From assembly GCA_035540375.1 (NCBI GenBank), contig DATLGO010000048.1, positions 27,772-91,771 on the forward strand: 64,000 bases of DNA. The letters are read 5' to 3'. Source of the DNA: Thermoplasmatota archaeon. Lineage in GTDB: Archaea; Thermoplasmatota; SW-10-69-26; JACQPN01; JAJPHT01. Below the pieces are notes generated by a model. It saw only the letters and a list, made by a program, of their open reading frames with translations. It searched no databases and had not been told where the DNA came from. Position 1 is the first letter of the stretch. Every line of letters starts with the position of its first letter. The translations under genes were made by a program, and so were the position numbers. This document shows positions 2,359 to 63,400 of the stretch, one piece after another.

Positions 2359-3255
2359 TTGACGACGAAGGTCGGCTTCGTGGGCGCGGGCAAGATCGGC
2401 TCGAACGCCGTGTACTCGACGCTCCACCGCGTGGACGTGGACGAGATCGCGATCGTGGACATCGTGGAGAACCTCGCGGTCGGCGAGGCGATGGACCTCA
2501 ACACGGCGGCCGCGGGCCTCGGCAAGCGCACGCGCGTCGTGGGCGGCACGGACTACGCGCTCCTCAAGGGCGCGAAGGTCGTCGTCGTCTCCGCGGGCCT
2601 CGCGCGCAAGCCCGGCATGACGCGCGAAGACCTCCTCGCGAAGAACGCGGGCATCGTCAAGGACATCACGGCGAAGGTCCTCGCCGTCGCGCCCGAGGCG
2701 CAGATCAACTTCGTCACGAACCCCGTCGACCCCCTCGTGTACGCCGCGTGGAAGTCGAGCGGCAAGCCCCGCTCCCAGATCTACGGCATGGGCGCGCTCC
2801 ACGACTCGATGCGCCTCTGGGACGTCCTCCGCGACTCCGTGAAGGCGCCCGTGTGGAACGACGCGTGGATCCTCGGCAACCACGGCGAGCAGATGTTCCC
2901 CGCGGCGGGCCTCGCGCGCACGGGCGGCGCGAAGGTCGACTGGGCTCAGGCCAAGGAAGCGGTCCGGGGCCGCGCGGCGAGCATCATCGAGAAGAAGGGC
3001 GCGACCTACTACGCGCCCGGGATCGCCATCTCGCAGATGGTCCAGGCCGCACTCGGCCAGGGCCCGAAGCAGTTCATCCCCGTCGTGTGCGTCCTCGACG
3101 GAGAGTACGGCCAGCAGGACGTCGCCCTCGGCGTCCCCGCGATCCTCTCCGAGCGCGGCGTCGAGAAGGTCATCGACCTCCCCCTCAAGGGCGAGGATGC
3201 CGACTGGATGGCCTCCGCGGCGAAGGCCGTGAAGGACCAGATCGGGCAGATCTAG
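2359..3255 (+). CDS. mdh: malate/L-lactate dehydrogenase (LDH/MDH family)
   Basis: KVGFVGAGKIGS (NAD-binding GxGxxG), VVVSAGLARKPGMTREDLL and ILGNHGE catalytic-His region. The probable TTG start is at 2359; the track ORF from 2290 carries an unlikely Arg-rich leader. Confidence 0.85.
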   Translation: MTTKVGFVGAGKIGSNAVYSTLHRVDVDEIAIVDIVENLAVGEAMDLNTAAAGLGKRTRVVGGTDYALLKGAKVVVVSAGLARKPGMTREDLLAKNAGIVKDITAKVLAVAPEAQINFVTNPVDPLVYAAWKSSGKPRSQIYGMGALHDSMRLWDVLRDSVKAPVWNDAWILGNHGEQMFPAAGLARTGGAKVDWAQAKEAVRGRAASIIEKKGATYYAPGIAISQMVQAALGQGPKQFIPVVCVLDGEYGQQDVALGVPAILSERGVEKVIDLPLKGEDADWMASAAKAVKDQIGQI

Positions 3256-3290
3256 CACCATTGAGTTCGGGGCCTTCAGCGGGCACTCCG

Positions 3291-3318
3291 TCGCACAGCG
3301 CTGCGGCGCTGTGCGACT
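3291..3318 (+). terminator. perfect 12-bp stem hairpin (gtcgcacagcgc-tgcg-gcgctgtgcgac) just after the mdh stop
   Basis: The inverted repeat was read directly from the sequence. It is intergenic between convergent genes. Confidence 0.45.
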
Positions 3319-3433
3319 GCGTGCCAAGGGAGGGTGCTATCCGCCCCCTCCCTTGACCCTCCCGTGGACCAGGGGGCTCGCGCCCCCTGGACCCCCGACC
3401 CAAACCCGCGTTTTCCTGACGAACGAGGCCCGG

Positions 3434-3522
3434 GTTTTGCGGCCCCCCTTCCGCCATGCTCGGGTTCTACGGCCCCCTTCCGCCATGCTCGGGTTCTGTG
3501 GCCCCCTTCTACGCCTGCTCGA
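3434..3522. repeat. three contiguous ~29-nt tandem repeats (gggttctNNggccccc(c)ttccgccatgctc), the third degenerate
   Basis: Read directly from the sequence. It lies in the convergent intergenic region between mdh and the e2b2-family gene. Confidence 0.6.
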
Positions 3523-4533: not shown

Positions 4534-4589
4534 GATGCGGAATCCTTCGGCGTCCGCGCCGAATAACCTTGCGGCTTCGTCCGCGCGGA

Positions 4590-8678: not shown

Positions 8679-9560
8679 TCAGGCGTGCCACGCCGTCATG
8701 GCGCCGCCAGCCCACACTTCGACGAGCGGCGTGCAGGAGAGCGGCTCGAACACGGTGACGTGCAGCGCGTTCACGAATTCGCGGGAGTAGGGATTCGCGC
8801 CCGGCGCCCCCTCGTGGATGACCTCGTGCAGGACGATGCGGGCCGCGGGGCACGTCGTGACGACGCTTGGAACGTCGATGACCTGATTCGGGGCCGTCGT
8901 GATCGGCACGTTGATTGAATTCACCGTCAGCGTCGCGACGTGCGAATTCTCCGTGTACCCGACGGACCAGGGCTCGAGCTTCGATTCAGCCCGCAGGACG
9001 CTTGCGCGGATGACGGTCGCGCCGAAACTGATCGTCAGGTCCTCGACTTCGCCGACGCCGCGGAAGGGAATAGGCGCGGCCGAACCGAATTGGGCCTCGC
9101 CGTAACCGTTGAGCGTCGAGGCGTCGATGGTCACCCCAAGGGGCGCAAGGTAGACTCCGAGGACGGTCTCGTCCTCGATCTGGGGCCCTTCGGGCGCGTG
9201 CGCGCGGGCGGGGGCGAAAATCGTCGAGAGCGGCAACCAGGGCGCTGCGACGGCGAGGCCGAAGCCGGCGGCTTCGAAGCCCCGGGCGTAGGTGAAGCAA
9301 TCGACGACATTCCTGTACAGGGGATAACCCTGTGCCTTTTCGTCCTCGCTCGGTCGGACGTGACAGCACGTGTCGCTCTGCAGCAGGCCGAGTTGCCCGA
9401 CGAAGCCTTCGGCACAGGGCGGGGCGCTGCACAGGTGCGCGTGGCCGAGGATGGGCCCGTTGATGTCGTTGCACCGGCCGTGTTCCGCCGCGGCGGGGAC
9501 CGCGACGGGCGCGACGAAAGCGATTGCGAGCAAGCTGATCCAGATGGGTTTTCCGTTCAT
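8679..9560 (-). CDS. secreted hypothetical protein inserted between dnaK and dnaJ
   Basis: Signal peptide MNGKPIWISLLAIAFVAPVAVPAAA. Cys-containing mature protein with no recognised family. Confidence 0.5.
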   Translation of the reverse strand: MNGKPIWISLLAIAFVAPVAVPAAAEHGRCNDINGPILGHAHLCSAPPCAEGFVGQLGLLQSDTCCHVRPSEDEKAQGYPLYRNVVDCFTYARGFEAAGFGLAVAAPWLPLSTIFAPARAHAPEGPQIEDETVLGVYLAPLGVTIDASTLNGYGEAQFGSAAPIPFRGVGEVEDLTISFGATVIRASVLRAESKLEPWSVGYTENSHVATLTVNSINVPITTAPNQVIDVPSVVTTCPAARIVLHEVIHEGAPGANPYSREFVNALHVTVFEPLSCTPLVEVWAGGAMTAWHA

Positions 9561-9673
9561 GGAAGCCTCCCGATGGATCCAACGGGAGCCATCTATGTAA
9601 GGTTGATTGCGCAGACCGGCTTACCCGCGAGCGCCGTCCCCCCGCTCGACGCGCCATCGGAGAACGCTCGTCG

Positions 9674-14692: not shown

Positions 14693-16339
<1,647 letters not shown>

Positions 16340-24356: not shown

Positions 24357-25628
24357 ATGGCCGAGAAGCCGCACATGAACATCGTGTTCATCGGGCACGT
24401 CGACGCCGGCAAGTCCACGACTGTCGGCCGCGTCCTGCTCGACACGGGCACCATCGAAGCGCACATCATCGAGAAGCTCCGCAAGGAAGCGGAGGAGAAG
24501 GGCAAGGGCGGGTTCGAATTCGCCTACGTCATGGACAACCTCAAGGAGGAGCGCGAGCGCGGCGTCACCATCGACATCGCGCACAAGAAGTTCGTGACGA
24601 ACAAGTACTACTTCACGATCATCGACGCCCCCGGCCACCGCGACTTCGTCAAGAACATGATCACGGGCGCGTCGCAGGCTGACGCGGCCGTGCTCGTCAT
24701 CTCCGCAGTCTCGGGCATCGAGGCCCAGACGAAGGAGCACATCTTCCTCGCGAGGACCCTCGGCGTCGAGCAGCTCATCGTGTACGTCAACAAGATGGAC
24801 GCGCTGCAGCCCGCCTTCGACCAGAAGAAGTTCGACGCGCTCAAGGAGCAGATCGAGACGCTCATCCGGACGGTCGGCTACAAGAAGGAGAACGTTCCGA
24901 TCATCCCCGGCTCCTCGTACAAGGGCATCAACATCACGAAGGCCCCGGCCGAGATGGGCTGGTTCAAGGGCCCGACGCTCCTCGACGCCATGAACGGCCT
25001 CAAGGAGCCCTCGAAGCCCACGAACCTCCCGCTCCGCCTCCCGGTGCAGGACGTCTACTCGATCACGGGTATCGGCACGGTGCCGGTCGGCCGCGTCGAG
25101 ACGGGCATCCTCAAGATCGGCGACACCATCATCTTCAACCCCTCGGGCGCGACGGGTGAGGTCAAGTCGATCGAGATGCACCACGAGCAGCACCAGCAGG
25201 CCGTCCCCGGCGACAACGTCGGCTTCAACGTCCGCGGCATCGACAAGAAGTCGATCCGCCGCGGCGACGTCGCCGGCAAGGCGGACAACCCCCCGAAGGT
25301 CGCGAAGGCCTTCGTCGCCCAGATCGCCGTCCTGCAGCACCCCTCGGTCATCGCCGCCGGCTACACGCCCGTGTTCCACATCCACACGGCCCAGCTCGCG
25401 TGCACGTTCGAGGAGCTCCAGAAGAAGATGGACCCGAAGACGGGCCAGGTCAAGGAGGAGAACCCCCAGTTCCTCAAGACCGGCGACATCGCGATCGTGA
25501 AGATCCGGCCCTCGCGCCCCCTCGCGATCGAGCGCTCCAAGGACATCCCCCACATGTCCCGCTTCGCGGTCCGCGACATGGGCACGACGGTCGCCGCCGG
25601 CCTGTGCCTGGACCTCGAAGAGCGCTGA
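24357..25628 (+). CDS. tuf: translation elongation factor aEF-1 alpha
   Basis: [27 protein letters not shown]...[20 protein letters not shown], archaeal-type. A GGAGG RBS lies 7 nt upstream. Confidence 0.97.
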
Positions 25629-25660
25629 GCGCAGCGAAGCGCGAAGCGAGGTCCAGGCGA

Positions 25661-25682
25661 GCACGAACCCGCAGGTTCGTGC
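25661..25682 (+). terminator. hairpin gcacgaac-ccgcag-gttcgtgc downstream of tuf, flanked by a 25-nt direct repeat of the tuf 3' end
   Basis: The inverted repeat was read from the sequence. The same core recurs at about 49605. Confidence 0.4.
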
Positions 25683-25816
25683 GGTGCCTCGACCTCGAAG
25701 AGCGCTGAACGCTCGATTCGCCGGCCTCGGCCGGGACCCGCGCCGCAGGGGATCTGCGGCAGTCCTTTCTTTTCACCCTCGATGGACGAGCCGCGGCCGC
25801 GTCGCGTCAGCGGAGC

Positions 25817-48447: not shown

Positions 48448-48641
48448 ACCCACCCGGCCACGGGAAGCCCGTTGCCGCCTGTCGCGGAGACGCGCCCCAG
48501 CTTCGGATCGGTCCATCCAATCGTGAGAAAAGCTCAGGAGGCCCGACGAATTTCCGGGAGCCACGGCCAGCCTAGCTCGGGTCAGTCAGGACCCCCTCTC
48601 CACAGTGCACCCTCTCCCGCCCCCGTGGAGGCAACGCCCGC

Positions 48642-49487
48642 GTGAATGACTTCCGCGCGGGACCCCTCAGCGTGGACAAGGCCTTCTACGCAGCGTTGAA
48701 GCTGCACGTCTACAATTCGATCAACGACTCGCTCCTGAACGCCCTCCTCGGGGGGCGCTCCATCACCATCACGGACGACGTGAAGCTCGAGATCGCCCGC
48801 TTCACGGCCCGCCGGATCAACCACATCTTCGTCTCCGAGAACGGGAACCGCCCGAACTCGTCCTGCGAGTTCTACGGCTTCACGAGCCACAAGGTCCGCG
48901 AGAAGCTCATGGACTTCGAGGAGCGCGGCATCATCGAGCTCACGGGCAAGGGCCTGCGGGACGCCTTCACGTACCGCTGGCGCGCGCCGATCAAGCACTG
49001 GGAGATCTGCTCGTACATGCGCTTCAGGCGCCTCACGGGCGACGACCTGACGCTGAATCTCGAGCTCACGCGGGTGTTCCAGAACGTGGGCCTCGAGACG
49101 TTCACCCTCCAGGATTTCATGGGCTTCTACCACGAGGCCCACGGCGAGGAATACGGCAACACGCGCTGGGGCAAGCGCAAGTTCGAGAGCCTCGTGAACT
49201 CCTACGCCTACCAGTCCTTCCTGAAAAGCCGCCTCGAGAAGCTCGTCTCCCGCAAGCTCGTCGTCGCGACCGAGAAGGACCAGTTCGCCCTCAATCCCGT
49301 CGCGCAGGACGCGGTGAACCATTTCGACCTCTTCGTGAACGAGGTCGCCTACCACCCGTCCCGCGAGATGTGCCGCGCGTGCCCCATGGACGCGCTCTGC
49401 CGCGCGGGCTCCACGCAGCTCGTCGTCATCACGCTGAACAAGAATCAGGACCCCCTTCCGACGCCGCCGACGCTGAAGATCGAGTAG
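48642..49487 (+). CDS. hypothetical protein (281 aa), possible winged-helix segment
   Basis: GTG start. The amino-acid composition (N, F, Y, K-rich) is atypical for this genome. SHKVREKLMDFEERGIIELTGKGLRDAFTYRW resembles a wHTH. C-terminal CRACPMDALC. Confidence 0.45.
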   Translation: MNDFRAGPLSVDKAFYAALKLHVYNSINDSLLNALLGGRSITITDDVKLEIARFTARRINHIFVSENGNRPNSSCEFYGFTSHKVREKLMDFEERGIIELTGKGLRDAFTYRWRAPIKHWEICSYMRFRRLTGDDLTLNLELTRVFQNVGLETFTLQDFMGFYHEAHGEEYGNTRWGKRKFESLVNSYAYQSFLKSRLEKLVSRKLVVATEKDQFALNPVAQDAVNHFDLFVNEVAYHPSREMCRACPMDALCRAGSTQLVVITLNKNQDPLPTPPTLKIE

Positions 49488-49491
49488 GCTG

Positions 49492-49514
49492 GCCGCCCTC
49501 CTTCTCAGGGCGGC
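49492..49514 (+). terminator. hairpin gccgccct-ccttctc-agggcggc immediately after the stop of the 48642..49487 gene
   Basis: The inverted repeat was read from the sequence. Confidence 0.4.
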
Positions 49515-49604
49515 GTCGGAAGCGACGGGGTCACCCCGAACCAGCCCGCATCAGGACCCCCTTCCGACGCCGGCGAAGGCGGCGCCAAAGCGCCGCCAAG
49601 CCGC

Positions 49605-49625
49605 CAACGAACCCGCAGTTCGTTG
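49605..49625. repeat. hairpin caacgaac-ccgca-gttcgttg, sharing its core with the tuf-downstream hairpin and flanked by 28-31-nt direct repeats
   Basis: Read from the sequence. The direct repeat ggcggcgcc(aa/gc)agcgccgccaagccgcc lies at about 49578 and 49634. Confidence 0.5.
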
Positions 49626-49712
49626 AGCGCGAAGGCGGCGCCGCAGCGCCGCCAAGCCGCCGCCGAGCCCACAGGCTCGGCGAGCGCCGACGCTGAGGAC
49701 GGATCGCCGAAC

Positions 49713-50387
49713 CTACGCCGCGCGCCGCGTCTTCAAGGCGAGGTACCCGAGCGACGCGAGCGTCGTGAGGCCGACGAGGACGGCGGCCCCGTGGAGGCTG
49801 CGGGCCTCGACGCTCGCCCCGAGGACGGGGTGGAGGAGGCCGAAGATCGTCGGTCCCATGAGGACCGCGACGAGCACGATCGCGGCCGCGATCGCAAGAA
49901 GCCTCAGCTGACCCGCCCGGACCGCGGAAGCCGCGGCATCGAGGCGCGCGATCGTGCCGGGGGGCGCGGCCGCGGCGACGTGGAGGAACTTCGCGGCGAG
50001 GGTCGCGTTCTCGACGAAGACGACGAACCCGAGCCCGCCGGCGAGCGCGATCACCCATTCGAGGAGGGACGGAAACGCGGTCGCGACGGGGAGCGCGACG
50101 AGGATCGCGAGAAGGCCTCCCGCGGCCGTCTGGAGGTAGGCGAGGCGTTCGCCGCGACCCTCCGGGTCGTTCTCGACGTTGAAGCGCGAGGCCCGCACGA
50201 GCCCGTGCCGCGCGATCGCGGTGGCCGCGAGGCCCGCGGCGAGGGTGAGCGCCGGAATCTCGACGACGCCGAGGAACGGACGGTCGCCGAGGAGGGCGAG
50301 GCCGCCCGTCGCGAGGGCCGTCGTCGCGAGGCCCGCGGTCGCCATCGCGATGCTCGATCGGGCGCCGCGGCCGATGTCGCGCGTCAA
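49713..50387 (-). CDS. polytopic membrane protein, last gene of the MoxR operon
   Basis: 224 aa with at least five hydrophobic helices. The start overlaps the DUF58 stop by 4 nt (ATGA). Confidence 0.5.
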   Translation of the reverse strand: MTRDIGRGARSSIAMATAGLATTALATGGLALLGDRPFLGVVEIPALTLAAGLAATAIARHGLVRASRFNVENDPEGRGERLAYLQTAAGGLLAILVALPVATAFPSLLEWVIALAGGLGFVVFVENATLAAKFLHVAAAAPPGTIARLDAAASAVRAGQLRLLAIAAAIVLVAVLMGPTIFGLLHPVLGASVEARSLHGAAVLVGLTTLASLGYLALKTRRAA

Positions 50388-52667: not shown

Positions 52668-53890
52668 CTGCTGCCTTTGCCGTAGTTCCGGATCCTTGTC
52701 AGGAGATCCTTGAGGGTATCGTCATCGCTTGCGCCGTTTTCGCCGCGCACGACGCGACGCAACCGGTCGTCGGTCGCGAGGACCGCGAGCGTTTCGGGGG
52801 CGGGCGACTCCTCGCGCACGCCGTGGACGGCCCGCACGCGCTCGCGCGCGAGGCGCGTAATGCGCTCGATCGGGCTCGCCATGGGGGAGGTCCGGACGCG
52901 GGCGAGGCCGCTCCGGTGGTGCGTGAGCCGCTCCTCGGGTTTGACGAGGGCGAGGAGCACCGCGATCGCGAGGCCGAGGGAACCGAGGAAGATCCACTGC
53001 CAGAACGGGTCCTTCGTCGGCACGACGAGCGACGCGAGGCCCGCCGCGGCGAGCCGGGCCTGGGGCGCGGGCGCGTGACGCGATTCGTCGAAGAGGATGG
53101 TTCCGGCGTTCGACCCGCGGGCGAGCGCGTCGGGGAGGGCGAGGGCAAACTTGCGGTTGTCGCTCCCTGCGGCGTCGAGCATCTCGTTCGTGAAGAGGGC
53201 GGGGTCCGCGATGAACATGACGGTGCCGCGGCCGTGCGCGACGACGACCATCTGGGGGAAGGGACCCTTCGTGTCCGTGTCGTCCTTGCGGCGGTTCCCG
53301 TCGTTGTCGAGGTACGAGTCCGGCGAGCTCGTCGCGACGATCCGGGCCGAGGGGTTCGCGCCGGAAAGAAGGCTCGGGCTCACGGTGAGGGCCGTGGGCT
53401 CGTTGAGAAGGAGGTCGAAGGTCAGGTCCTCGCCCTTGCTCGTCGTGAGGAGCGCGCGGGCGCGGGCGAGCGAGACGTTCTTCTGGAAGTTGGAGTCGAG
53501 GAGCGGCACCTTGTCGAAGGTGACGCCGAACTTGACGGCGAGCGTGTTCGCGAAGCCGAAGTCGTCCGCGACCACGAGGACGCCGCCGCGCGTCACGAAG
53601 TCGTCGAACGCCTCGATCTCGGAGGCCGAGTACGGCCGGCTCACGCCGACCGCGAACACGATGTGGGCCGCGGGATCGGAGACGCCGCGCAGCACGAGCG
53701 GCGTCGAGGCGATGGTGTCCGTGTTGTACCCGAGGCCCCCCGCGAGGCTCGCGCGGTACGCGCCGAGATCCGCGCGGCCCGAGCTGTAGGATCCGAGCTC
53801 CGGGGGCGGGGAATAGAGGATCGCGACGACGGCGCCCCCGACAATGAGGGCGGCAAGGAGGACGGCCGCGAGGCCGAGCGCGCGCTTCAC
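52664..53890 (-). CDS. DUF4350-like protein (N-terminal and C-terminal TM helices flanking a large extracytoplasmic domain)
   Basis: The GTG start (VKRALGLAAVLLAALIVGG) overlaps the stop of the giant upstream gene (GTGA). C-terminal TM FWQWIFLGSLGLAIAVLLALV. The stop overlaps the MoxR start (GTGA). The 5' 2.4 kb of the track ORF 52664..56311 overlaps the giant gene out of frame and is rejected. Confidence 0.6.
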   Translation of the reverse strand: MKRALGLAAVLLAALIVGGAVVAILYSPPPELGSYSSGRADLGAYRASLAGGLGYNTDTIASTPLVLRGVSDPAAHIVFAVGVSRPYSASEIEAFDDFVTRGGVLVVADDFGFANTLAVKFGVTFDKVPLLDSNFQKNVSLARARALLTTSKGEDLTFDLLLNEPTALTVSPSLLSGANPSARIVATSSPDSYLDNDGNRRKDDTDTKGPFPQMVVVAHGRGTVMFIADPALFTNEMLDAAGSDNRKFALALPDALARGSNAGTILFDESRHAPAPQARLAAAGLASLVVPTKDPFWQWIFLGSLGLAIAVLLALVKPEERLTHHRSGLARVRTSPMASPIERITRLARERVRAVHGVREESPAPETLAVLATDDRLRRVVRGENGASDDDTLKDLLTRIRNYGKGSR

Positions 53891-56800
53891 GCGCCCGCCT
53901 CCTTCGCGCCGCCCTTCGTGCGCCGGATGCGCGCGAGGTCGGCGTTGAGCGCGGCGAGCGCGCTCAGGGCGCGGTCGCGCTCGGCGGGCCCGACGCCGTG
54001 GGCGGAGTACCGCGCCTCCTCGAAGAGCGAGACGAGCGCGTCGAGCGGCGCCGCGCGCACCGGGAGAGCCGCCTTGACGGCGGCGCCGAACTCCTGCGCC
54101 GTGACGTCCGGCGTCGTCGTGTACCCGAATTTCACGAGGTAGTCGCGCAGGCGCCGGTAGGCCATGAGAATGGTGGCCGAGTACTCGTCGCCCGCGACGA
54201 GCGCGGCCTGCGTGTCGAGGAGGATGCGCTCGGCCTCGGTGACGCGGCTCTTCCTGTACCAGGCGACGAGGAGGCTCACGATGGCCGCGACCGCGAGAGC
54301 GCCGATGAGCGCGAGGACCCACGAGTTGCCGGCGCCGCCGAAGGCGCCCGTGGAGATCTGGATGCGGGTCGCCTCGTTCGTGGGCAGCAGGTCGTCGGTC
54401 CCGCCGAAGCGCACGTCGAGGTCCGAGGCGCCCGCTCCGGTGACCTTCCCCGGGAAGGAGGCGTGGCCGGTCGCGTTCGTCTTCAGCGTGAACGGGTAGT
54501 ACGAGCCGCTGAAGTGGACGCGGAGCACGGCGTTCGGGACGCCGAGCCCCTCGTCGTCGAGGAGCTGGACGGTGCCCGTGAAGCTGTCGCCCACCGCGAG
54601 CTTGCGGGGGACCACGACCTCGAGCCGGGTCATGCTGATGACCTCGACGAGCGCGATCGCCGAGGCGGGCGTGTGGCTCTGGTCGCCCGCGTAACGGACC
54701 TCGATCGGGACCCGGGCGCGCTCGAAGTCGGCCGGGATGAGGGCCGCGACGTGGAAGCTCCCGTTCGGGGCCGTGCTCGCGCGCGCGAGGAAGGAGCCGT
54801 TGAAGATGAGCTCCACGGAGGCGCCGGGGACGCCGAGGCCGTTCTCCTGCTTGAGGCGGCCGTCGAACTCGAAGACCTGGCCGCGCACGGCGCGCGGGGG
54901 CGGGTGGATCTCGAGCACGGTGCGCGAGAGCAGGCGCAGCGACCCGGTCGCCCCCGAGGGCGCGTAGAGCGTGGAGCCCTCGTAGCGCGCCTCGATCGGG
55001 TAGACCTTCGCGGCGACCCCGGAGGTGTCGAAGCCGGCCTCGGCCTCGCCGCGGAAGTCGGTCGGAGTGACCGTCACGGGCGATCCGAGGAAGGTGACGC
55101 CGACGATCTCGCCGCCGATGGGCCGGCCGGCGTCGTCGTGGAGCGTGAAGTTGTACACGACCTCGCCGATCGCGGCGGTGAGGTGGGGCATGCGAATCGA
55201 GGTCGCGCTCAGGACGCGCACCGTCGAGACGAGCTCCGGCGCCCCGCGCAGGAGGCCGTCCGCGCTCCCGTCGTAGCGGGCGCGCGCGAGGACGGGGCCG
55301 AGGCTCGCGTTCGCGGGGAGCGTGAGGGGCGCGCGGAATCCTCCGGTCGCGTTCGTCACGAAGACGCCGAGATGGCGCTCGCCGAGCGTCACGTTCACGC
55401 TTTCGCCGCGGACGGGCCGCTCGTAGGCGTCGACGACGACCCCGACGAGCGCCTGCGGAACGCCGCGCACGAGGGCCTTCGTCTCGAGGCTCACGCGCGT
55501 CGCGGACGTCGCCGGAACGCGGATCGAGGTCGAGGCGGGCCCGTAGAAGTCGGATCCCGCGAATCCGAGCGCGAACGTCACGCTCCCGACCTTGGGATAG
55601 ACGTTCCTCGGGATGGTGAGCGAGAAGGTTCCCGTCGCGTTGTCCACGCGCGCCTGGGTCGCGTAACCCTCCGTCGAGATGCGGATGACGAGCGCGTCGC
55701 GCGAGGTGGGGTCGCGCGCGGGGCCGCCGCCCACGTCCCGGAGGGTCCCCTGGATGACCGCGTCCTTCGCGATGTCGAGCGCCGTGACGCGGATGAGGTC
55801 GGCCCCGAGGGGCTGGAGGATCTGCGCCTCGAGGACGGGCCGGGCCCGGATGGTGACGAAGCTGAGCTTCTGCGAGGAGGCCTGGTAGAGGTCGGATCCC
55901 TCGAAGACGAGGGAAACGGGCTGGTTGCCAGGACTCGAGTCCTCGGGGATGAGGATCTTGAAGGACGCGACACCCTGCGCGTTTGTAACCGCCGTGTGGA
56001 GCGCTCCGAGGAAATGGAGACCGACGGTCTCGTTGCCGACGACCGCCCCCCGGAAGTTCCTGAGGGTCGCCTCGGCGACGAGATCGCCTCCCGCAACCGC
56101 GATGAGACGATCGTTCAGCACGCGGCCGGAGATCTTCGTGGGGAACGCGATCGCGACGCGGGCCTTCCCCGTCGAGGCGCCGTAGAGCTCCGATGGCGTG
56201 GTCTCGAGCGGGAGGTCGAAGTAGCCCGGCTCCTGGGCGGCGCCGGTCGGGAAGCTGATGTTGAACCGCCCCTCCGCGTCCGTGGTCGCGCTCTTGCGGA
56301 CGCCGTTCCACGTCATGAGCACCGGCCTCCGCGGCGCGGGGTCACCCGACCCGTCGAGGAGGCGCGCGGTGCCCCCGATCTCGCCGTTCGGCGTCGTGCG
56401 GAGCGTGGGTCCGGCGTCGAACGTGGTCGGCGTGCGCAGGCGGAGCGTCTGTGTTGCCACCACGGGCGTCTCGAACGTGCCGCGGATGCCCCGGGCCCGG
56501 TAGACGGTGGAGCCCGCGCCGTCGACGACGTCGGCGGCGGTCCACTCCGCGTGGGCGCCGATGCCGTAGCTCCAGAGAAGGACGCGGTAGCTCGTGATCG
56601 CTGGATCGAGCGCGACGGAGGCCGTGTCGAGGGTCCAGCTCACCGTGGATCCCGGAGCGTGGACCTTGCCGAAGAGCACCACCGGGCCGCAGCTCGAGGG
56701 AATGGTGACGGATTGCGCGCGCACGAGCGAAAGCGTGAGCGAGAAGCGGCCGGCGGCGTCCGTGAACGCCACGCCCGCGACGCGGGACGGGTCGCTGCGG

Positions 56801-59800
56801 GCCCTCAGGTTGTCCTTCGAGGCGTCGTTCCAGGCGAGGTTCGCGAGGATGGGGACGCAGGCGCGGTTGACCCAGTTGCGCGTCGAGGCCGCCGGGGCGA
56901 GCGTCCCGTCGACCGCAAGCGAGCCCCCCTTGAGCAGGATGTCGTCCTGACCGGAGTGGTGCGTCACGACGAGGTCCTGGATCACGACGTCCGCAAGCGC
57001 TTCCCAGATCGGGCACGTGTCGCCGGGAAGTCGGGTCGAGGCCACGCTGAGGCGGCCTTCGCGCATCACCCAGGCGTTCCGGAAGGCGGGGTCCGCGGGG
57101 TCCGCCTCGCCCGTGTTCATCTGGTCGTAGAACGGGTGCGGATCCTCGCCGACGAAGTCGTTCAGCCCGTCCTTGTCGTAGTCGAAGTTGTTGCCGAGGA
57201 TCTTGCCCGTGATCGGGTCGATGAAGCCGTCCTTGAAGGGCGGTCCCGCCTTGCACGAGCGCGTCGCGATGTTCGTGTCCGTGCGGTTGCCCGCGGCGCC
57301 GAACCACCAGGTGCCGGTCCACGACGGCGGGCGGCCGATGTCGTACCGCTGGCCTTCGGACAGGTCGCCGAAGCGCGAGACCGTGCGGGTGTCCTGGAGC
57401 GGGTCGTACCCGTAGAGCTGCTCCCACCCGTCGGGGATCCCGTCGTCGTCCGAATCCTCGTCCGTGGGGGAGGTTCCGACGGCGCACGTTCCCCCGTCGG
57501 GGCATCGCTCGCCGTAGAAGATGTATCCGCCCGGAATGCGCGTGTGCACGATGCCCGCGGCGATGAGCGCTTCGACGTGCTCCGCAAGGTCCGGCTTCGA
57601 GAGCGTCGCTTCGCACGTCGCGGGGAGGGCGCCGCCCGCAAGCTGCGCCTGCCAGTTCGGGCCGTCGAGGAGGCCGTCGCCGTCGGTGTCGAAGGCGACG
57701 ACGCTCGTCGGGGGATTGAGCGCGAGCTCGTCGGCGGCGCTGAGGCCGTCGCAGTCCGCGTCGGAGGCGCCGAGGTCGTCGAGCGGGTTCAGCGGATTGG
57801 ATCCCGCGAGCTTCCCTTCCTCGGTGACCTCCTTGCCGTCGCCGAGGCCGCCGAAGTCGCTGTCGGGATTGAGGGGATCGGTCGGGCCCGGCATGCCGGG
57901 CTCGAAGGAGACCTTCCACTCGTTGACGTTCGAAAGCCCGTCGCCGTCGCAGTCCGATTTCCCGCCGAGGGGGTTGCGCGGCTCGAAGAGGCTCACGCAG
58001 GAGACGTAGGCGGGGCTCGCCGAGGCGAGCCGGCGCGTGCGCGCCTCCCACCAGTCCGGCATCCCGTCGCCGTCGGTGTCCGGCACGAGCGGGTCCGTGC
58101 GGTTCTCGTACATCTCGCGCCAGGTCCAGCGGAACGGGCCCTGGATGATGTAGACCGTGAATTCCTCGGCGCGGCCCTGGGCCTTCACGCGGTGGTACCC
58201 GTTCGTCGGGGCGAGGAGGGTCTCCGAGGGCGCAAGCGTCGCGGGCGTGCCCTCGGGGACGCCGAGGGTGCGCACGTACGTGGTCTCGAACCCGGTGGCG
58301 TTCACGTCGCCGGGCTTGAGCGGGTCCATGCAGCCGCACGGCGACGCGACGCCGGGGGCGTGCGAGCCGACGCGGGAGAAGTAGTATTCCCACCCGTCGG
58401 GAACGCCGTCGCCGTCCGAGTCCGCGCGGTGGGGATCGGTCTTGAGCGCGTACTCGTCGAGGTTCGTGAACGCGAACTGGAACGGGAACAGGGTGCCGAC
58501 GCGGTGGTCCACGCCGTCGCCGTCGAGGTCGCGCGTCGTGTCGGAGAGCCCGTCCTTGAGGCACGACCCGAGGCTGTCGACCCGCGTCGGATCGAGGTCC
58601 CACGCGAAGCACGCGTGGACGTACCAGGCGTGGCGGATCTCCCAGCCGTCGTCGAGCGAGTCCCCGTCCGTGTCGAAGAGGGCGGGATCGGAGGCGGGGA
58701 AGGGGTACGCGTCGAGCGCCCCCGGGGCCGCGAGGCGGCGCTCGGGCTTGAGCTCGGCCCCGTCGTTCACGCCGTCGCCGTCGGCATCCGCGTTCACGAC
58801 GTTCGGGGCGTCCTGCCAGCGGCCGCAGCCTTCGCCGAGGCGTCCCTGGGGCAGGAGCGCCTCGCGGGCCTGCTGGAGCGACCACGTCTCGCCCTTGCAG
58901 CGGCGGTGCTGGTCGATGATGCGGTTCAGCTCCTCGGGCGTCGCCTGCTGGGAGCGGGTCGTCCAGTACTCGACCTCGGCGCCGTCGAGGATCCCGTCGC
59001 GATCCGTGTCGGACTCGACGGGGCTGAGCGGCGGGGACACGGCGAAGGCGACCTCGTCGAGATCGTCGATGCCGTCGAGGTCCGTGTCGGGCGTGAGGGG
59101 ATCGAGCGCGCACGGGACGCCCGCCTTGGCGGCCGTGTCGTAGCAGAAGTCGACGCGGCGGCCCGCGATGACCGAGAAACCCTGACGCTTCTCGAAGTCG
59201 GTGAAACCCGAGTTGGCGCTGTCCGCGCGGGCGGGATTGCTCCACACGTGCGTCGTGCGACCGTCGACCGTGACCGACCAACCGAGGACGACCTCCTCGA
59301 AGTCGTTGAGGCCGTCGCCGTCCGTGTCGCGCCGCCGCGGATCGGCGCCCGAGAGCGCCTCCTCGAGGTTCGTGAGGCCGTCGCCGTCGGGGTCCGTGAG
59401 CGGCCCCACGACGAAGGCGGGAAGCGAGGCGCGCGAGAGCCACGCGGGGAGCGAGATGTGGGTGAGGAGCGCCGCGCGCACGCCGCCGCCGTCCGCCGCC
59501 GAGAGCGGGTCGAGCCCGTGCGCGACCTCCCACGCGTCCGACATGCCGTCGCCGTCGGAGTCCGCCCGCGTCGGGGAAAGCCCGCGCGCGAAGAGGGGCG
59601 CGAGCTCGTCGCCCGAGAGGTTCGCGTAATTGAAGCGGGCCGCGGTCCAGCGGAACTTCTCGAGCACCGTCATGCCGGTCCCGTCGAGGCTCCGGTAGGC
59701 GAGGCCCGGGTCGAGGGCGTCGAGCTTCCAGTGGAGGAGCCAGCCGTCCGCGATGCCCGCGCCGCTCGTCGAGTATCGCGTCGCGTTCGTGCGCGTCTCC

Positions 59801-60465
59801 GTCATCTCCTTGAGATCCTCGAGACCGTCGCCGTCGGAGTCGAGGCGCGAAGGATCGAGGCCGAGCGCGAAGTTCTCGAGGTTCGTGAGACCCTTGCCCG
59901 AGCAGTCCCGCGTCGCATCGGGAACGAGCGGGTCCGGGCACGCGGTCCCGTTGTCGGGGCCGCGCTTCGCGTAACGGGCCTCCCAGGCGTCCGGGAGCCC
60001 GTCGCGGTCCGTGTCCGCGTGGTTCGGGTCCGTTCCGTGCCGCTCCTCGTCGCGGTTCGAGAGGCCGTCGCGATCGCAGTCGCCGTCCGCGTCGGGAACC
60101 ACGGGGTCGGGACAGTACGTTCCGGAGACGAAGTCGTAGCTTCGCTTCAGCGCCTCCCACGCGTCGGGAAGGCCGTCGCCGTCCGTGTCCGCGGAGTCGC
60201 GCGCCGTGCCGTAGGAGAACGTCTCGTCGAGGTCGGAGAGCCCGTCGCCGTCCGTGTCGATGAAGGCGAGATTGCCGTCCGGCGTCGCGGTCGCGAACTC
60301 GATCTGTCCCGTGCCCGCGGTCTGCGTGAGGCTCGGAAGGACGGCGGCGCCGACGAGGAGGTTCGCGAGGAGGACGAGCGCGAGGACCGCGGGAGCCACC
60401 TTCGCCTTCTGCGCCCAGGCCCACCGCGCCATGCGGGTCGCGGCTTCGCTTCCCGGAAGCGTCAC
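53887..60465 (-). CDS. giant (2192 aa) surface protein with a TSP3-like repeat region, a beta-sandwich domain array, a TM helix and a DUF4129-like cytoplasmic tail
   Basis: N-terminal signal/anchor (VAPAVLALVLLANLLVGAAVL). About 19 D-x-D-x-D-G-x-x-D-x-x-E repeats (for example DTDGDGLSDLDE, DSDGDGMSDAWE, DTDGDGMPDWWE). Repeated roughly 100-aa beta-sandwich modules. TM helix NSWVLALIGALAVAAIVSLLVAWY. C-terminal tail with ...TPDVTAQEF...LFEEARYSAHG... resembling DUF4129. Confidence 0.8.
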   Translation of the reverse strand: MTLPGSEAATRMARWAWAQKAKVAPAVLALVLLANLLVGAAVLPSLTQTAGTGQIEFATATPDGNLAFIDTDGDGLSDLDETFSYGTARDSADTDGDGLPDAWEALKRSYDFVSGTYCPDPVVPDADGDCDRDGLSNRDEERHGTDPNHADTDRDGLPDAWEARYAKRGPDNGTACPDPLVPDATRDCSGKGLTNLENFALGLDPSRLDSDGDGLEDLKEMTETRTNATRYSTSGAGIADGWLLHWKLDALDPGLAYRSLDGTGMTVLEKFRWTAARFNYANLSGDELAPLFARGLSPTRADSDGDGMSDAWEVAHGLDPLSAADGGGVRAALLTHISLPAWLSRASLPAFVVGPLTDPDGDGLTNLEEALSGADPRRRDTDGDGLNDFEEVVLGWSVTVDGRTTHVWSNPARADSANSGFTDFEKRQGFSVIAGRRVDFCYDTAAKAGVPCALDPLTPDTDLDGIDDLDEVAFAVSPPLSPVESDTDRDGILDGAEVEYWTTRSQQATPEELNRIIDQHRRCKGETWSLQQAREALLPQGRLGEGCGRWQDAPNVVNADADGDGVNDGAELKPERRLAAPGALDAYPFPASDPALFDTDGDSLDDGWEIRHAWYVHACFAWDLDPTRVDSLGSCLKDGLSDTTRDLDGDGVDHRVGTLFPFQFAFTNLDEYALKTDPHRADSDGDGVPDGWEYYFSRVGSHAPGVASPCGCMDPLKPGDVNATGFETTYVRTLGVPEGTPATLAPSETLLAPTNGYHRVKAQGRAEEFTVYIIQGPFRWTWREMYENRTDPLVPDTDGDGMPDWWEARTRRLASASPAYVSCVSLFEPRNPLGGKSDCDGDGLSNVNEWKVSFEPGMPGPTDPLNPDSDFGGLGDGKEVTEEGKLAGSNPLNPLDDLGASDADCDGLSAADELALNPPTSVVAFDTDGDGLLDGPNWQAQLAGGALPATCEATLSKPDLAEHVEALIAAGIVHTRIPGGYIFYGERCPDGGTCAVGTSPTDEDSDDDGIPDGWEQLYGYDPLQDTRTVSRFGDLSEGQRYDIGRPPSWTGTWWFGAAGNRTDTNIATRSCKAGPPFKDGFIDPITGKILGNNFDYDKDGLNDFVGEDPHPFYDQMNTGEADPADPAFRNAWVMREGRLSVASTRLPGDTCPIWEALADVVIQDLVVTHHSGQDDILLKGGSLAVDGTLAPAASTRNWVNRACVPILANLAWNDASKDNLRARSDPSRVAGVAFTDAAGRFSLTLSLVRAQSVTIPSSCGPVVLFGKVHAPGSTVSWTLDTASVALDPAITSYRVLLWSYGIGAHAEWTAADVVDGAGSTVYRARGIRGTFETPVVATQTLRLRTPTTFDAGPTLRTTPNGEIGGTARLLDGSGDPAPRRPVLMTWNGVRKSATTDAEGRFNISFPTGAAQEPGYFDLPLETTPSELYGASTGKARVAIAFPTKISGRVLNDRLIAVAGGDLVAEATLRNFRGAVVGNETVGLHFLGALHTAVTNAQGVASFKILIPEDSSPGNQPVSLVFEGSDLYQASSQKLSFVTIRARPVLEAQILQPLGADLIRVTALDIAKDAVIQGTLRDVGGGPARDPTSRDALVIRISTEGYATQARVDNATGTFSLTIPRNVYPKVGSVTFALGFAGSDFYGPASTSIRVPATSATRVSLETKALVRGVPQALVGVVVDAYERPVRGESVNVTLGERHLGVFVTNATGGFRAPLTLPANASLGPVLARARYDGSADGLLRGAPELVSTVRVLSATSIRMPHLTAAIGEVVYNFTLHDDAGRPIGGEIVGVTFLGSPVTVTPTDFRGEAEAGFDTSGVAAKVYPIEARYEGSTLYAPSGATGSLRLLSRTVLEIHPPPRAVRGQVFEFDGRLKQENGLGVPGASVELIFNGSFLARASTAPNGSFHVAALIPADFERARVPIEVRYAGDQSHTPASAIALVEVISMTRLEVVVPRKLAVGDSFTGTVQLLDDEGLGVPNAVLRVHFSGSYYPFTLKTNATGHASFPGKVTGAGASDLDVRFGGTDDLLPTNEATRIQISTGAFGGAGNSWVLALIGALAVAAIVSLLVAWYRKSRVTEAERILLDTQAALVAGDEYSATILMAYRRLRDYLVKFGYTTTPDVTAQEFGAAVKAALPVRAAPLDALVSLFEEARYSAHGVGPAERDRALSALAALNADLARIRRTKGGAKEAGA

Positions 60466-63400
60466 GGGGCGACCCTCCGCCTAAGGAGCAGGGCCGCGCC
60501 GAGCGCCGCGACGACGATCGCGAAGGCCGGAACGGGCGTGAAGGCGCCGCTTGATCGGGCCGAAAGGTCGTATTTGAGGGCGTTGTTCGCGCGGTTCTCC
60601 TCGTGGAAGCGGTTCGAGGGATCGATCGCGATCTCGAACGTCGAGGCCCGGATGACGTTCCACGGGAGCTGGATCTTGCGGGCCTCGTTTGGGGCGAGGC
60701 TCTCGAGCGTCGCGTTCTTCACGACCTGCCCGTCCGCGACGAGCGCGACCTCGACGCGGCTCGCGGGCACGGTGCCGTTGTTGAGGACGGTGATCTCGAA
60801 GAGGACGGTCTCGCCGACCGCGAAGCGGTTGGCCTTCGCGTCGACCTTCACGACGCTGAGGTCGAGGCGCTCGATCACGAGGTCGATCGGCGTCACGCGC
60901 TCGCGCTCCTGGTTGATGACGCCGCGGACCTCGAGCCGCGCGCTGTCGCTTGTGGCGTTGCGCGGCGCGGTGACCTCGAAGGCCACGCGCGTGGATTGGC
61001 CGGGCTCGAGCCTGACGATGCGGTCATCGGGCCGCTCGAACCGCATCGTCCAACCCGGGGGCGGGACGGTCTCGAGGACGATCTCCTCGGGACCGTTGCC
61101 GGTGTTCGTGACCGCGAGCGCGACGCGCGTCTTTCCGCCGGGACGGACGAACCCGTCGGACTCCACGATGGCCTCGTAGTCGAAGAATCGCTTCACGCGG
61201 GCCGCGACGACCTTCTCGAACAGGTGGCGCGAGCCTTCCGCGTCCGAGAGGAGGAAGCCGACGCCGATCGCGAATTCGCCCGGATCCTCGTTGGGCTTCG
61301 CGGCGACGACGACCGAGACGGCGCGCGCCTCGCCCGGCAGCAGGTCGAAGGTGCCCGGCGGATTGACCTCTGCGAAGGACCAGCCGGGCGGGAGCGCGGA
61401 GGGCACGAGAGAGACCCGCATCGCGCCGTTCGCGCGGCTTGCGATCTCGAAATCGAAGCTCACCTTGGCGCCCGGGTCGAGACTGCGGGGGAGCGGGGTC
61501 GGAACGACGAGTGTGAAGTTGTTGACGACGATGGCGGTCACGCGCGTCGCGTTCTCCTTGAGGCCGCCGTCGGCTTCCTCGGTGAGCGCGGTCGCCTTCA
61601 CCTGGAAGGGAAGCACCTGACCGACGCGCGCGCTCGGTCCCGGCAGCACCGAGAGGTTCACGACCCGGCTGTCGCCCTGGCCGCGGAGCGTCACGCGCGA
61701 AGGCTCGATCGCGTACGTCCAGTCGGGGGCCGCGGGGGAGACGACGCCGAGGACGACCTCCGTGTCGCTTCCCAGGTTCGTGACCTTGATCGGGAGGTGC
61801 GTCGTCGTTCCGGGCGTGACGCGGAAGGTCGAGTTCTCGGCGTCGACCCGAAGGTCCGTGCGGATGTTGATGCTCACCGTGGCCGTGACCTGGTCCTGGG
61901 TCGAGGCGTCCGCGACCGAGGCGCCCTGGACGACGAACTCCCATTGGAGGGGGAGGTCGTTGCGCGGCGCGCGCACGCGGAGCTTGACCTCCGTTTCGCC
62001 CTTCTCGGGGAGCGCGACGCGACCCTTGAGACCCGAGGAATCCGCGATGCGGCGGCCCGCCGCGTCGACGATCTCGGCCGTGAACGGGAAGCCGCCGGGA
62101 CCGCCGGGGCTCACGGAGAGCGTGACGTTGTCCGCGCCCGTGCCCGTGTTCTTCACGAGGACCGTGAACTCGTGCGTGCCCGCGGACTGGAGGCTCGCGA
62201 ACGAGGTCTTGGCCTGCGCGACGCGGCCGACGAACGACATCTGGAAGTCGTAACGCGTCTGCACGCTCACCGTGACGCGCGCGGTATCCTGGATGCGCGG
62301 GTTGGCTCCGCTCGTGAGCGTGAGGTTGAAGGTGATCTGCTCGCCGGTCTTCACCGAGGGGTCGATGCGGATCGCCACGGTGACGTCGCGCGTTCCGCCC
62401 GTCGGGATCGAGCGCTCGATCGCGGTCGAGACCGTGACGCGCCATTTCTGGGTCGAGCCCTGGAAGTCCTGGTCGATCTCGAAGTCGTCCGTGATGCTCG
62501 TGTTGCCGAGGCCGCGGCCGAGGTTCACCGCGGTGAGCGTGAACTTGGCCGTGTCGCCCGGCTTGAACGTCCCCGAAAGCGTTCGCTCCTTCCACGCGAC
62601 GAGGTTTCCGTAGAAGTTGACGATGCCGACCTCGATCTTCACGGGCGCGAGCGTGCCCTGGTAGAACGTCCCGTAGAGCTGGCTCCCCGGCGTGTACACG
62701 TTCACGAGCACGGGCTTCGACGCTTCCACGCGGAAGAAGGCGTCCTTCGCGCCCGACCGGAAGATGGGCTGGTTGTTCTGGCGCCACACGTAGTCGTTCT
62801 GGTTGAGCGTCCGCGTGAGGCGCGTCGTGAACTGGGTCGTGCCGTTCGCGAGGAGGGTTTCCTCCTTGACGGTCACGACGGTGTTGTTGTGGACGGGAAA
62901 GATGTTCATCCATCCCGGGAGGCTGTTCGACCCGGTGGAGGGGATGCGGACCTCGAAGACGCGGCCGCCGTCGAGACCGCCCGCGGCCATGTATCCTCGT
63001 CGGCCCGAGGCGACCGAGATGGGTCCTCCTTCGACCGCGTAGAAGGTCCAGGGCTCGGCGCGGTCGTTGTGCGTGTTCTGGCTCTGGACGTTCGAGCGGA
63101 CGGCGTGCGGCTTGATCGTGAGGGTTCCGTCGCAGTACGGGATGCGGCCGAGCTGCGGGGGCGTCGTGAGCTGGTCGCAGGTCGGCGAGACCATGCGCGT
63201 TCCGATGAACTCGGTGGGCGCGTAGGCTGTCGTCACGAAGGACCGCGCGAAGGCGCCGTAGACCTGGGTTCCCGCCGGTGCGCCGTGCTTCGACGGCATC
63301 TGGTAGAGATAGTTGTCGTTGGCCCCGGTCGTGAACACCATGATGCGGCCTTCGGCTTCGATCCGCATCGGCGATCCGTCCGACCCGACGAGGGTCGCGC

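Follow-up and report, generated by a model that had tools for sequence, protein, structure and literature searches.

Why should the last codons of a gene recur in the short gap that separates it from its neighbour, once in the same direction and once inverted, among hairpins one of which resembles a hairpin downstream of an unrelated gene? The question is raised by an open reading frame (ORF) at 48642-49487 of a 64-kb stretch of archaeal DNA (from contig DATLGO010000048.1; "the window" below means these 64,000 nucleotides as a whole) and by the gene for elongation factor aEF-1alpha (tuf) at 24357-25628 of the same stretch. A sequence-only reading had proposed that the two loci share either a small mobile or recombinogenic repeat family or a conserved structured RNA element at gene 3′ ends. 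Comparison with related contigs and genomes indicates that a small palindromic DNA element, which is lineage-restricted and which we call H, has probably inserted at the locus. H is a 22-nt hairpin with the core ACGAACC-CGCA-GGTTCGT, a 9-bp stem and a 4-nt loop, and is part of a larger group of GC-rich hairpin modules with perfect stems, which gather in the intergenic regions of high-GC Thermoplasmatota.

The ORF at 48642-49487 has 69 homologues in Thermoplasmatota, the label carried by homologues of the window proteins; conservation reaches to about codon 266 (...LNKN), beyond which the C-terminal tail varies. The repetition of its 3′ end downstream, noticed in the sequence-only reading, was borne out. 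There are exactly two copies of the 23-mer ATCAGGACCCCCTTCCGACGCCG, one at 49444-49466 and the other at 49550-49572, with 0 expected from shuffled sequences, and the direct repeat reaches 27 nt with one mismatch. We refer to the repeated segment as T and to its inverted copy as T′. The intervening segment, described earlier as a near reverse complement of the gene end, proved to be complementary at 14 of 14 positions over 49509-49522 (GGCGGCGTCGGAAG, against 49455-49468) and, past a 4-nt insert, at six more (GGGGTC at 49527-49532, against GACCCC at 49449-49454). Because T′ pairs with 49449-49468, the stop codon of the ORF is placed in a loop, and the predicted RNA fold of the 273-nt locus (z = -6.1 relative to shuffles) encloses it in a long T:T′ stem. 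Between T′ and the second T, where the tuf locus has H, the segment 49537-49550 is probably a degenerate half copy of H.

All 225 nt from the stop codon of this ORF to that of the convergent gene at 49713-50387 are taken up by the repeat region, which contains five perfect stems of at least 8 bp within 200 nt (49492-49514, 49578-49597, 49605-49625, 49634-49653 and 49661-49682). The first of these, singled out previously as terminator-like, does have a perfect stem. No T-run was found in 49488-49712, where the longest pyrimidine stretch is ccttctc, whereas ordinary terminators in this DNA and in relatives consist of a hairpin plus a T-run; H is thus no oligo-T terminator of the archaeal type. 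Downstream of the second T lies a block of two 56-nt tandem units that are alike over 46 nt at 87%. Their first hairpin (GGCGGCGC-caaa-GCGCCGCC at 49578-49597 in unit 1) and linker are identical save for the loop. Their second hairpins (CAACGAAC-ccgca-GTTCGTTG at 49605-49625, a variant of H, and CGCCGAGCC-caca-GGCTCGGCG at 49661-49682) differ at three stem pairs, all compensated on both sides. The H variant at 49605-49625 is present as had been claimed; the 15-mer core CGAACCCGCAGTTCG that was said to match the tuf hairpin is instead unique in the window, even when 2 mismatches are allowed, an additional G being present in the hairpin at tuf (…CCGCAGGTTCG…). What the two loci share exactly is the 12-mer ACGAACCCGCAG, which occurs twice in the window and is followed by TTCGT. 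Similarly, the 28-31-nt direct repeats said to flank this hairpin exist and are the first halves of the 56-nt tandem unit (49573-49684).

Since a piece of the ORF end recurs beyond the tandem block, the second gene-end copy is itself split by these 112 nt, on either side of which CGCCG is found. Two independent metagenome contigs from the same organism (L001 and L002) match the window as far as 49572 and then, about 100 nt past the ORF, end in fold-back artefacts, so that the block is visible only in the window assembly. The artificial fold-backs, at L001 3919-3951 and at the end of L002, occur at the T / T′ inverted repeat. No further copy of the 56-nt unit, or of the hairpins beginning GGCGGCGC, CGCCGAGCC and GCCGCCCT, was present in any of the loci compared.

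Two observations concern the surroundings of the same ORF. The first 12 nt of its duplicated end (TCAGGACCCCCT) occur exactly a third time at 48586-48597, 45 nt upstream of the ORF start. The shorter GGACCCCC has 4 occurrences in 64 kb, three of them the copies at this ORF and the fourth in a composite element at 3389; the copy at 48586-48597 could be one more fragment of an element or a site for a regulator. The ORF is also bracketed by a perfect inverted repeat of 11 nt (CGGCCAGCCTA at 48564-48574 and TAGGCTGGCCG at 49485-49495), whose downstream arm overlaps the stop codon and whose length is within chance for a 1.4-kb GC-rich region.

The sister locus downstream of tuf shows the same order of parts with an intact H. 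Directly 3′ of the tuf stop, GCGCAGC forms a C-GCA-G triloop mini-hairpin. T′ (CGAGGTCCAGGC, 25647-25658) follows; all 12 of its nucleotides are complementary to the end of tuf, and a diverged quasi-palindrome prolongs it. Next comes H itself (GCACGAAC-ccgcag-GTTCGTGC, 25661-25682). A T-run is reached about 80 nt past H. The sequence of this locus is the same in five assemblies of the organism, and in its predicted RNA fold (z = -3.3 relative to shuffles) a long T:T′ stem again closes a loop that contains the stop codon. The second tuf copy runs on as TGAACG…, like the relative L163, and is thus probably the ancestral gene end; the insert together with one T (80 nt) would then be a lineage-specific gain. 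We compared the last 33 nt of each gene with the next 70 nt at 37 window gene ends. Perfect complementarity between gene end and downstream sequence reached 12 nt at tuf and 14 nt at ORF 48642 and stayed below 12 nt at the others, and among mismatched-pair controls about 3 of 1330 genuine pairs reached 12 nt (2 artefactual 33-nt full-length matches excluded). Non-coding local direct repeats of at least 13 nt occur in the 64 kb only at tuf, at ORF 48642 and in a 29-nt tandem repeat at 3444.

H is present in 2 copies in the window, both with perfect stems. Across seven aligned copies, the 7 core pairs of the stem are invariant and the 2 outer pairs covary (GC in four and CG in three copies at one; CG, GC and GU in two copies each and AU in one at the other). 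None of the 9 core pairs is unpaired, the 3 outermost pairs of the 12-pair structure tested are mostly unpaired, and the covariation score of the alignment is 0.222, compared with 0.063 in shuffles. By blastn, 25656-25684 around the tuf copy is 29/29 identical to modules on L147 and L154, two hairpin-array contigs from the window's own study, although the flanking genes do not match. H was found in at least 4 other archaeal lineages. A scan of 185,579 genomes, one per species, for the 17/18-mer ACGAACCCGCAG(N)TTCGT gave at least 120 loci; the perfect 18-mer was present in 20 of the matches listed, 3 of them in Thermoplasmatota and two of those in one metagenome-assembled genome (MAG), and most of the listed matches are single chance matches in bacterial genes and terminators. 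The 18-mer gave 33 metagenome loci, 5 of which come from the window's own study. Neither H nor the 56-nt unit had a match in 2.9 million viral contigs, and no diverged H with another loop was found beyond chance. The core is thus not confined to the two loci of the window, which would have spoken against a repeat family, as it recurs on other contigs and in other genomes.

Two further sequences resemble H. An apparently bacterial and separate repeat family (L125, L127, L135, L142, L144, L156 and the Oscillospiraceae MAG L084), from termite-gut-type samples and with repeats of the form ccccgACGAACCCGCAGGTTCGTtgggg, carries the identical 18-nt core inside a longer palindrome, ggggtccccgACGAACCCGCAGGTTCGTtggggtg, within ccccg…tgggg; window positions 49527-49549 (GGGGTCACCCCGAACCAGCCCGC) resemble the left half of this palindrome. 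A third exact copy of the 10-mer CGAACCCGCA, half of H, lies at 14694-14703 on the minus strand, a little upstream of where the CTP synthase gene starts. Base composition leads one to expect about 0.3 such copies by chance, and this one may be a remnant of H or a coincidence.

Wherever the context could be resolved, copies of H stand in one polarised layout, for the comparison of which the loop was read as CCGCAG: a first T that is continuous with the undamaged gene, then a turn and T′, then H at a distance of 0-3 nt, and, after a further 1-4 nt, a second T (Table 1). T measures 18, 18, 23, 25 and 27+ nt at five clear sites, and about 37-80 nt of DNA lie between the T copies in five independent loci. 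At atpB the turn is GGGCC-gca-GGCCC, the second T has its TGA changed to TAA (L108), and a hairpin with a T-run follows it. At dnaJ, H is antisense to the operon and lies within the 81 nt between the dnaK stop and the dnaJ start codon; the upstream T copy opens a 20-codon ORF that ends TAATG at the dnaJ start. In the HAD phosphatase, whose locus is archaeal by its GlmM (Arch_GlmM), the event lies inside the protein, which reads MRRAVFLD-HDEPAGSSNLGK-RRRAVFLDRDG…, with the HAD profile beginning at residue 21-23. The layout is also present at L060, a weak case with a T of 8-14 nt, which was dropped as a clean gene-end example as its upstream ORF is a doubtful 58-codon TTG ORF. An ArsR-like ORF has a copy of H in its C-terminal tail without clear duplication. 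Overlaps of 1-3 nt occur at the junctions (at tuf, GGC is common to T′ and to the 29-nt H piece), and GCA and GAA triloop turns are frequent at the insertion sites.

Table 1. Positions of the repeat features in the window (strand as given) and insertion sites of H with their target copies.
Feature	Position or contig	Strand	Description
ORF with duplicated 3′ end	48642..49487	+	conserved hypothetical, 281 aa, no Pfam match, G+C at third codon positions (GC3) 0.96
T copy 1 (X1)	49444..49470	+	last ORF codons ATCAGGACCCCCTTCCGACGCCGCCGA; stop TAG = 49485-49487
Hairpin directly after ORF stop	49492..49514	+	perfect GCCGCCCT-ccttctc-AGGGCGGC; 3′ arm overlaps T′
T′ (X′), inverted copy of T	49509..49532	+	GGCGGCGTCGGAAG[cgac]GGGGTC; pairs with 49449-49468
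Probable half copy of H, CGAACCagcCCGCA	49537..49550	+	T′ on one side, T copy 2 on the other; chance expectation ~6e-4 for a 27-nt segment
T copy 2 (X2)	49550..49576	+	second direct copy; 23/23 exact, 26/27 overall
Tandem unit 1, 56 nt	49573..49628	+	hairpin 49578-49597, linker AAGCCGCC, H variant 49605-49625
Tandem unit 2, 56 nt	49629..49684	+	first hairpin as in unit 1 but loop cgca (49634-49653)
Third ORF-end fragment CGCCGACGCTGAGGA	49685..49699	+	14/15 against 49465-49479
Convergent membrane-protein gene	49713..50387	-	GC3 0.93
tuf T copy 1	25604..25628	+	last 8 codons and stop TGA of aEF-1alpha, GTGCCTGGACCTCGAAGAGCGCTGA
55-nt insert at tuf	25629..25683	+	turn GCGCAGC, quasi-palindromic filler, T′, H
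tuf T copy 2	25684..25708	+	24/25 identical; then two more hairpins, T-rich run ~25764-25773
Copy of dispersed composite hairpin array	3252..3446	-	without H
Site: tuf 3′ end	window		T 25 nt; T′ 12 nt
Site: ORF 48642 3′ end	window		T 27+ nt; T′ 14+6 nt; half copy of H
Site: A-ATPase subunit B (atpB) 3′ end	L108 / L157		T 18 nt; GCGCCGAAGAAGCACTGA … H … GTGCCGAAGAAGCACTAA
Site: dnaJ start	L153		T 18 nt (13/18); ATGCCCACCAAGCGCGAT-…H…-GGCAGGTGAT-cta-ATGCCCACCCGCCGTGAC
Site: HAD-IIIA phosphatase N-terminus	L128		T 23 nt (2 mismatches); 60-nt period, in frame

A pair of long direct repeats around a short palindrome could also be read as the scar of site-specific integration, with H as the core site of a tyrosine recombinase, the T repeats as attL and attR, and the element itself deleted almost completely. 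The geometry of H (two 8-9-bp arms and a 4-6-bp spacer) suits such a core, the 18-27 nt of the T repeats fall in the range of att identities, and integrative elements typically enter at 3′ ends and duplicate the end of the gene. The ~37-80 nt between the T copies, however, include an inverted copy of the local target, which integration does not make. H also serves as a module in arrays that have no long T repeats, the duplicated segments are protein-coding termini (ARAGORN found no tRNA or tmRNA in the 64-kb window), there is no integrase among the ~37 window genes, and the viral contigs lack H. We consider integration scars quite unlikely. An insertion by a Cas1-type integrase, whether a casposase or off-target CRISPR spacer integration, would accommodate short inserts of ~37-80 nt, long target duplications (14-15 bp for casposons; the whole repeat for CRISPR) and a preference for gene 3′ ends. 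Enzymes of the Cas1 type nevertheless act as rulers, whereas the duplication here varies over 18-27 nt; the same H enters each time, unlike random spacers, and the inverted target copy is left unaccounted for. The window has no cas1 and nothing resembling a CRISPR array beyond the two 56-nt units, in which two 33-nt "repeats" stand at 56-nt spacing and the intervening 23 nt, the would-be spacers, are perfect hairpins. This explanation seems very improbable.

Relatives that lack H were examined at two of these sites. Two tuf relatives with an EF-1alpha 87% identical share the C-terminal codons (…EIEER*), after which come an ordinary hairpin and T-run, with no H, no duplicate and no inverted copy. 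Relatives of atpB, 87-88% identical, have an ordinary 3′ region without H, duplication or T′. Flanking untranslated regions of the relatives, whose genes are 87-90% identical, are too divergent to align. For ORF 48642 no empty site was found among the nearest usable relatives, which are 60-62% identical and have unalignable, repeat-free 3′ regions. Because relatives without H lack both T′ and the duplication, T′ is not a pre-existing terminator arm and occurs together with H.

The same comparison bears on the other half of the earlier proposal, a conserved structured RNA element, which found no support: tuf and atpB of relatives 87-90% identical lack the arrangement, copies run antisense to dnaK/dnaJ or lie within ORFs, and no Rfam family corresponds to it. 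It likewise bears on a cis-acting RNA switch that would sense translation, with T:T′ masking the stop codon in the absence of a ribosome and T′ pairing with the second T once a ribosome occupies the first. Such a switch would set mRNA 3′-end stability or read-through in the manner of a bacterial attenuator. The predicted folds do put the stop in a T:T′ loop at both window loci (z = -6.1 and -3.3), complementarity between gene end and downstream sequence is exceptional for tuf and ORF 48642 only, and tuf, atpB and dnaK/dnaJ are expected to be highly expressed. An arrangement missing from such close relatives is nonetheless no conserved regulator. It is also found at 5′ ends and antisense (dnaJ) and within a coding region (HAD), and the second T is decaying (mismatches; TGA to TAA in L108) as a neutral copy would. 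Rfam 15 gave no match at the gathering threshold over the whole 64 kb and, at E up to 10, nothing meaningful for 49380-49760 and 3200-3640, the former yielding noise at E > 1. We therefore regard the switch as unlikely. Most likely H has no dedicated cellular function, and a dedicated role in regulation is unlikely since H is absent in close relatives, varies in orientation and lies inside ORFs. Strong stem-loops in mRNA 3′ ends, one of them enclosing the stop codon, would be a by-product, and the predicted stop-enclosing stems could affect 3′-end stability or termination.

Coincidence is the remaining deflationary account: unrelated GC-rich terminators in a 70% GC genome (70.6% over the window) with tandem duplications that happen to lie nearby. 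A 17-18-nt core does arise by chance in many bacterial genes and terminators, and other local tandem duplications exist (29 nt, at least three times, at 3444; 94 nt, twice, in L147). Against these stand the 29/29 identity of H and its flanks between unrelated loci, the enrichment of the perfect 18-mer in Thermoplasmatota among the matches listed, the recurrence of one polarised layout at five or six loci in at least 4 genomes, the 0 shuffles that give the repeats, and the relatives without the hairpin that are also without the duplication. Chance is scarcely credible on these data, and effectively refuted already. These same identities and relatives, and the common layout at atpB, dnaJ and the HAD gene, support the case made in the sequence-only reading against chance or ordinary terminators and for a family of small repeats that is mobile or recombinogenic.

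Some copies of H are modules of composite arrays of ~200 nt (130-250), of which there are five in ~87 kb: window 3252-3446 (minus strand), L154 120-367 and ~2460-2640, and L147 712-840 and 9654-9893. An array begins ACGCGGGTYYGG…GGGGGTCCAGGGGGC, ends …GGAGTGnnCGCTGAARGCCCCGAAC, and consists of 3-7 perfect hairpins with GGAGT linkers. Modules are optional: the window copy is without H and the hairpin next to it, L154 has both, and L147 has two more. In other modules the stems stay perfect as their sequences change, as in GTCGCACAGCGC, GTCGCATGGGCC and GTCGCACGGGCC with their matching 3′ arms. In the window and in L154 a convergent gene has its stop codon, which reads CTA on this strand, within a few nucleotides of the end of the array. 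L154 was rejected as an orthologue of window 3200-3600 and is a dispersed copy, as blastn matches the repeat only. Beside the window copy, the 29-nt unit CCCCCTTCCGCCATGCTCGGGTTCTACGG is repeated in at least three tandem copies (3444-3530); the L154 copy has a single unit. At L147 551-740, a 94-nt unit stands twice in tandem directly upstream of the array copy.

Taken together, these data argue that H, a small palindromic element of the interspersed kind, is being copied into new sites or was so until recently: it is multi-copy, stands at unrelated loci in the same layout, and relatives without it lack the duplication and T′. How it enters a site may be pictured as follows. In a T-H-T′ zig-zag, the strand being synthesised would first copy T and next H; once the H hairpin had folded, the strand's 3′ end would be extended along the strand itself, giving T′; after a second fold-back at a small C-GNA-G hairpin, T would be copied again from the original template and synthesis would go on. 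Such a process would be akin to snap-back or rolling-hairpin synthesis, or to a miniature duplication/inverted triplication, rather than to a fixed staggered cut by a transposase. Repeated switching of this kind would yield the direct/inverted/direct copies, the turns at hairpins and the sharp boundary that is observed on one side of H. Our best guess is that template switching at hairpins made the three-fold target copy, and it is favoured over a fixed-stagger transposase by the varying length of T, the 1-3 nt junction overlaps and the GCA/GAA triloop turns. Selection would retain those events that leave the gene intact, with a stop or start codon duplicated or the reading frame kept, and H could be supplied at each event by an abundant donor, by an enzyme or by a preferred stalling structure. 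At 49444-49700, a first event would have duplicated the ORF end, and a later insertion with 56-nt tandem duplication would have split the second copy. More tentatively, H may exemplify an undescribed kind of archaeal DNA insertion, a possibility to which we give a minor share of belief, in which a 22-nt palindrome is copied into gene termini and reading frames by rolling-hairpin or snap-back synthesis, possibly with a hairpin-specific enzyme, to give the 18-27 nt direct/inverted/direct triplication.

Several points weigh against reading the locus as an insertion site of H. The resolved insertions are few, five clear and one weak, and T′ is strong (12-20 nt) only at tuf, ORF 48642 and HAD, being 5-8 nt and short or imperfect at atpB and dnaJ. 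At ORF 48642 only a degenerate half of H occupies the canonical position, while the later tandem block, supported by one assembly, contains the intact H variant with a flanking repeat of only 5 nt. Within the hairpin arrays, H is flanked by a repeat of only ~4 nt (GGAG). Copies were counted in 64 kb plus ~70 kb of related contigs. The bacterial REP-like family has the identical 18-mer core, which could be favoured structurally rather than by common descent. Finally, the proposed template-switching scheme gives no account of why the same 18-22 nt enter at every event.

Among known elements, the closest parallels are REP (repetitive extragenic palindromic) elements of Proteobacteria, their bacterial interspersed mosaic elements (BIMEs) and the REP-doublet-forming hairpins (REPINs) that spread via REP-associated tyrosine transposases (RAYTs). 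Like H, these are short GC-rich palindromes of 20-40 nt, mostly extragenic, often placed just after stop codons or between convergent genes, gathered in mosaic hairpin clusters with conserved linkers, and present or absent between relatives with stem symmetry kept. H likewise forms a stem-loop from a palindrome in that size range. The REP tag is an unpaired GTAG or CGTC tetranucleotide at one end (PMC3733652). No GTAG stands beside any copy of H, and CGTC/GACG is confined to the stem, where some copies have it (GGACGAAC…GTTCGTCC), being absent from the aligned window copies GCACGAAC and CAACGAAC. There is no RAYT among the ~37 window genes, and REP insertion has no reported target duplication, in contrast to the 18-27 nt direct and inverted target copies at H. 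The host of H, moreover, is an archaeon.

Miniature inverted-repeat transposable elements (MITEs) resemble H in being small, non-coding and multi-copy with direct target repeats at their flanks. H differs in consisting of 22 nt in two abutting arms, with no terminal inverted repeats around an internal segment, and in having a duplication of no fixed length (18-27 nt), one flank that is an inverted target copy, and no known parent insertion sequence. In lifestyle H is thus REP/MITE-like, without the defining REP tag or MITE inverted ends. Rickettsia palindromic elements (RPEs), which are bacterial and 100-150 bp long, lie in frame inside genes and are tolerated as extra peptides, as are the insertions in the HAD phosphatase N-terminus, the ArsR-like C-tail and the ORF 48642 tail; they are not known to be associated with target triplication. 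RPEs carry the CGTC tag (PMC3733652).

The direct/inverted/direct triple copy is also produced by templated insertions and quasi-palindrome template switches (snap-back in alternative end joining; the human duplication-triplication/inverted-duplication, DUP-TRP/INV-DUP), which vary in length and have 1-3 nt microhomologies where they join, at hairpins or short inverted repeats. The likeness is one of description, and templated insertions are sporadic, with no recurrent inserted sequence, whereas the same 18-29-nt hairpin is present at every H event. Mycobacterial interspersed repetitive units (MIRUs) are short intergenic repeats in operons whose ends overlap the flanking stop and start codons, as does the dnaK-dnaJ copy of H; they are 46-101-bp tandem units, not hairpins, and have no inverted target copy. 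We know of no transposon type that the H signature, one direct and one inverted extra target copy, would fit. The literature yielded no description of H or of this signature, only general REP surveys (PMC12306157, PMC3733652). Other assignments were rejected: C/D-box or H/ACA small RNAs (no boxes), a bulge-helix-bulge intron (no bulges), a diversity-generating retroelement (repeat too short, no A-specific differences) and an integron attC site (no core sites).

The window otherwise carries archaeal housekeeping genes, including those for an ATP-dependent DNA ligase, PAC2, MoxR, DUF58, DnaK, DnaJ, malate dehydrogenase, an eIF-2B-family protein, CTP synthase, Nep1 and ribosomal protein S10; no transposase, Cas1 or other cas gene was found among the ~37 genes, nor was an integrase or RAYT. 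The window's own dnaK and dnaJ are separated by 1.1 kb (8560-9673, minus strand) with an extra gene at 8679-9560, which has a signal-peptide-like N-terminus, no Pfam match and lower GC3; H is absent from this spacer, and the extra gene ends in a classic hairpin-plus-T-run terminator. The eIF-2B-family gene (3625-4809, minus strand) has an N-terminal extension with CCCGG-rich imperfect repeats at 4600-4790 and a Pro/Gly-rich translation, and a similar stretch occurs at the start of L154. Two adjoining giant ORFs on the minus strand, 53887-60465 (2192 aa) and 60462-63947 (>1160 aa), stand next to the MoxR-DUF58 pair. In the former, the one scanned, Pfam finds bacterial TSP3 (calcium-binding) repeats, Ig-like domains and DUF4129, and a 37-nt "repeat family" in this region is a coding repeat.

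Interspersed palindromic repeats are well studied in bacteria and almost uncharacterised in archaea, and even in bacteria it has yet to be explained how tag-less repeats of this sort spread. For archaeal REPs there are to date only counts made with a generic tool (PMC12306157). As the target is copied three times and relatives lack both H and the duplication, the sites described here constrain the mechanism of insertion. In practical terms, H elements break short-read metagenome assemblies at fold-back repeats and can give spurious gene-end calls. In the organisms that carry it, H reshapes tuf, atpB, dnaJ and the HAD phosphatase gene by adding peptide segments, upstream ORFs and stop-enclosing stem-loops. 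Should the new mode of insertion prove real, H would be the smallest known mobile element with an insertion signature of its own, and one that generates new protein termini and stop-enclosing stem-loops in housekeeping genes.

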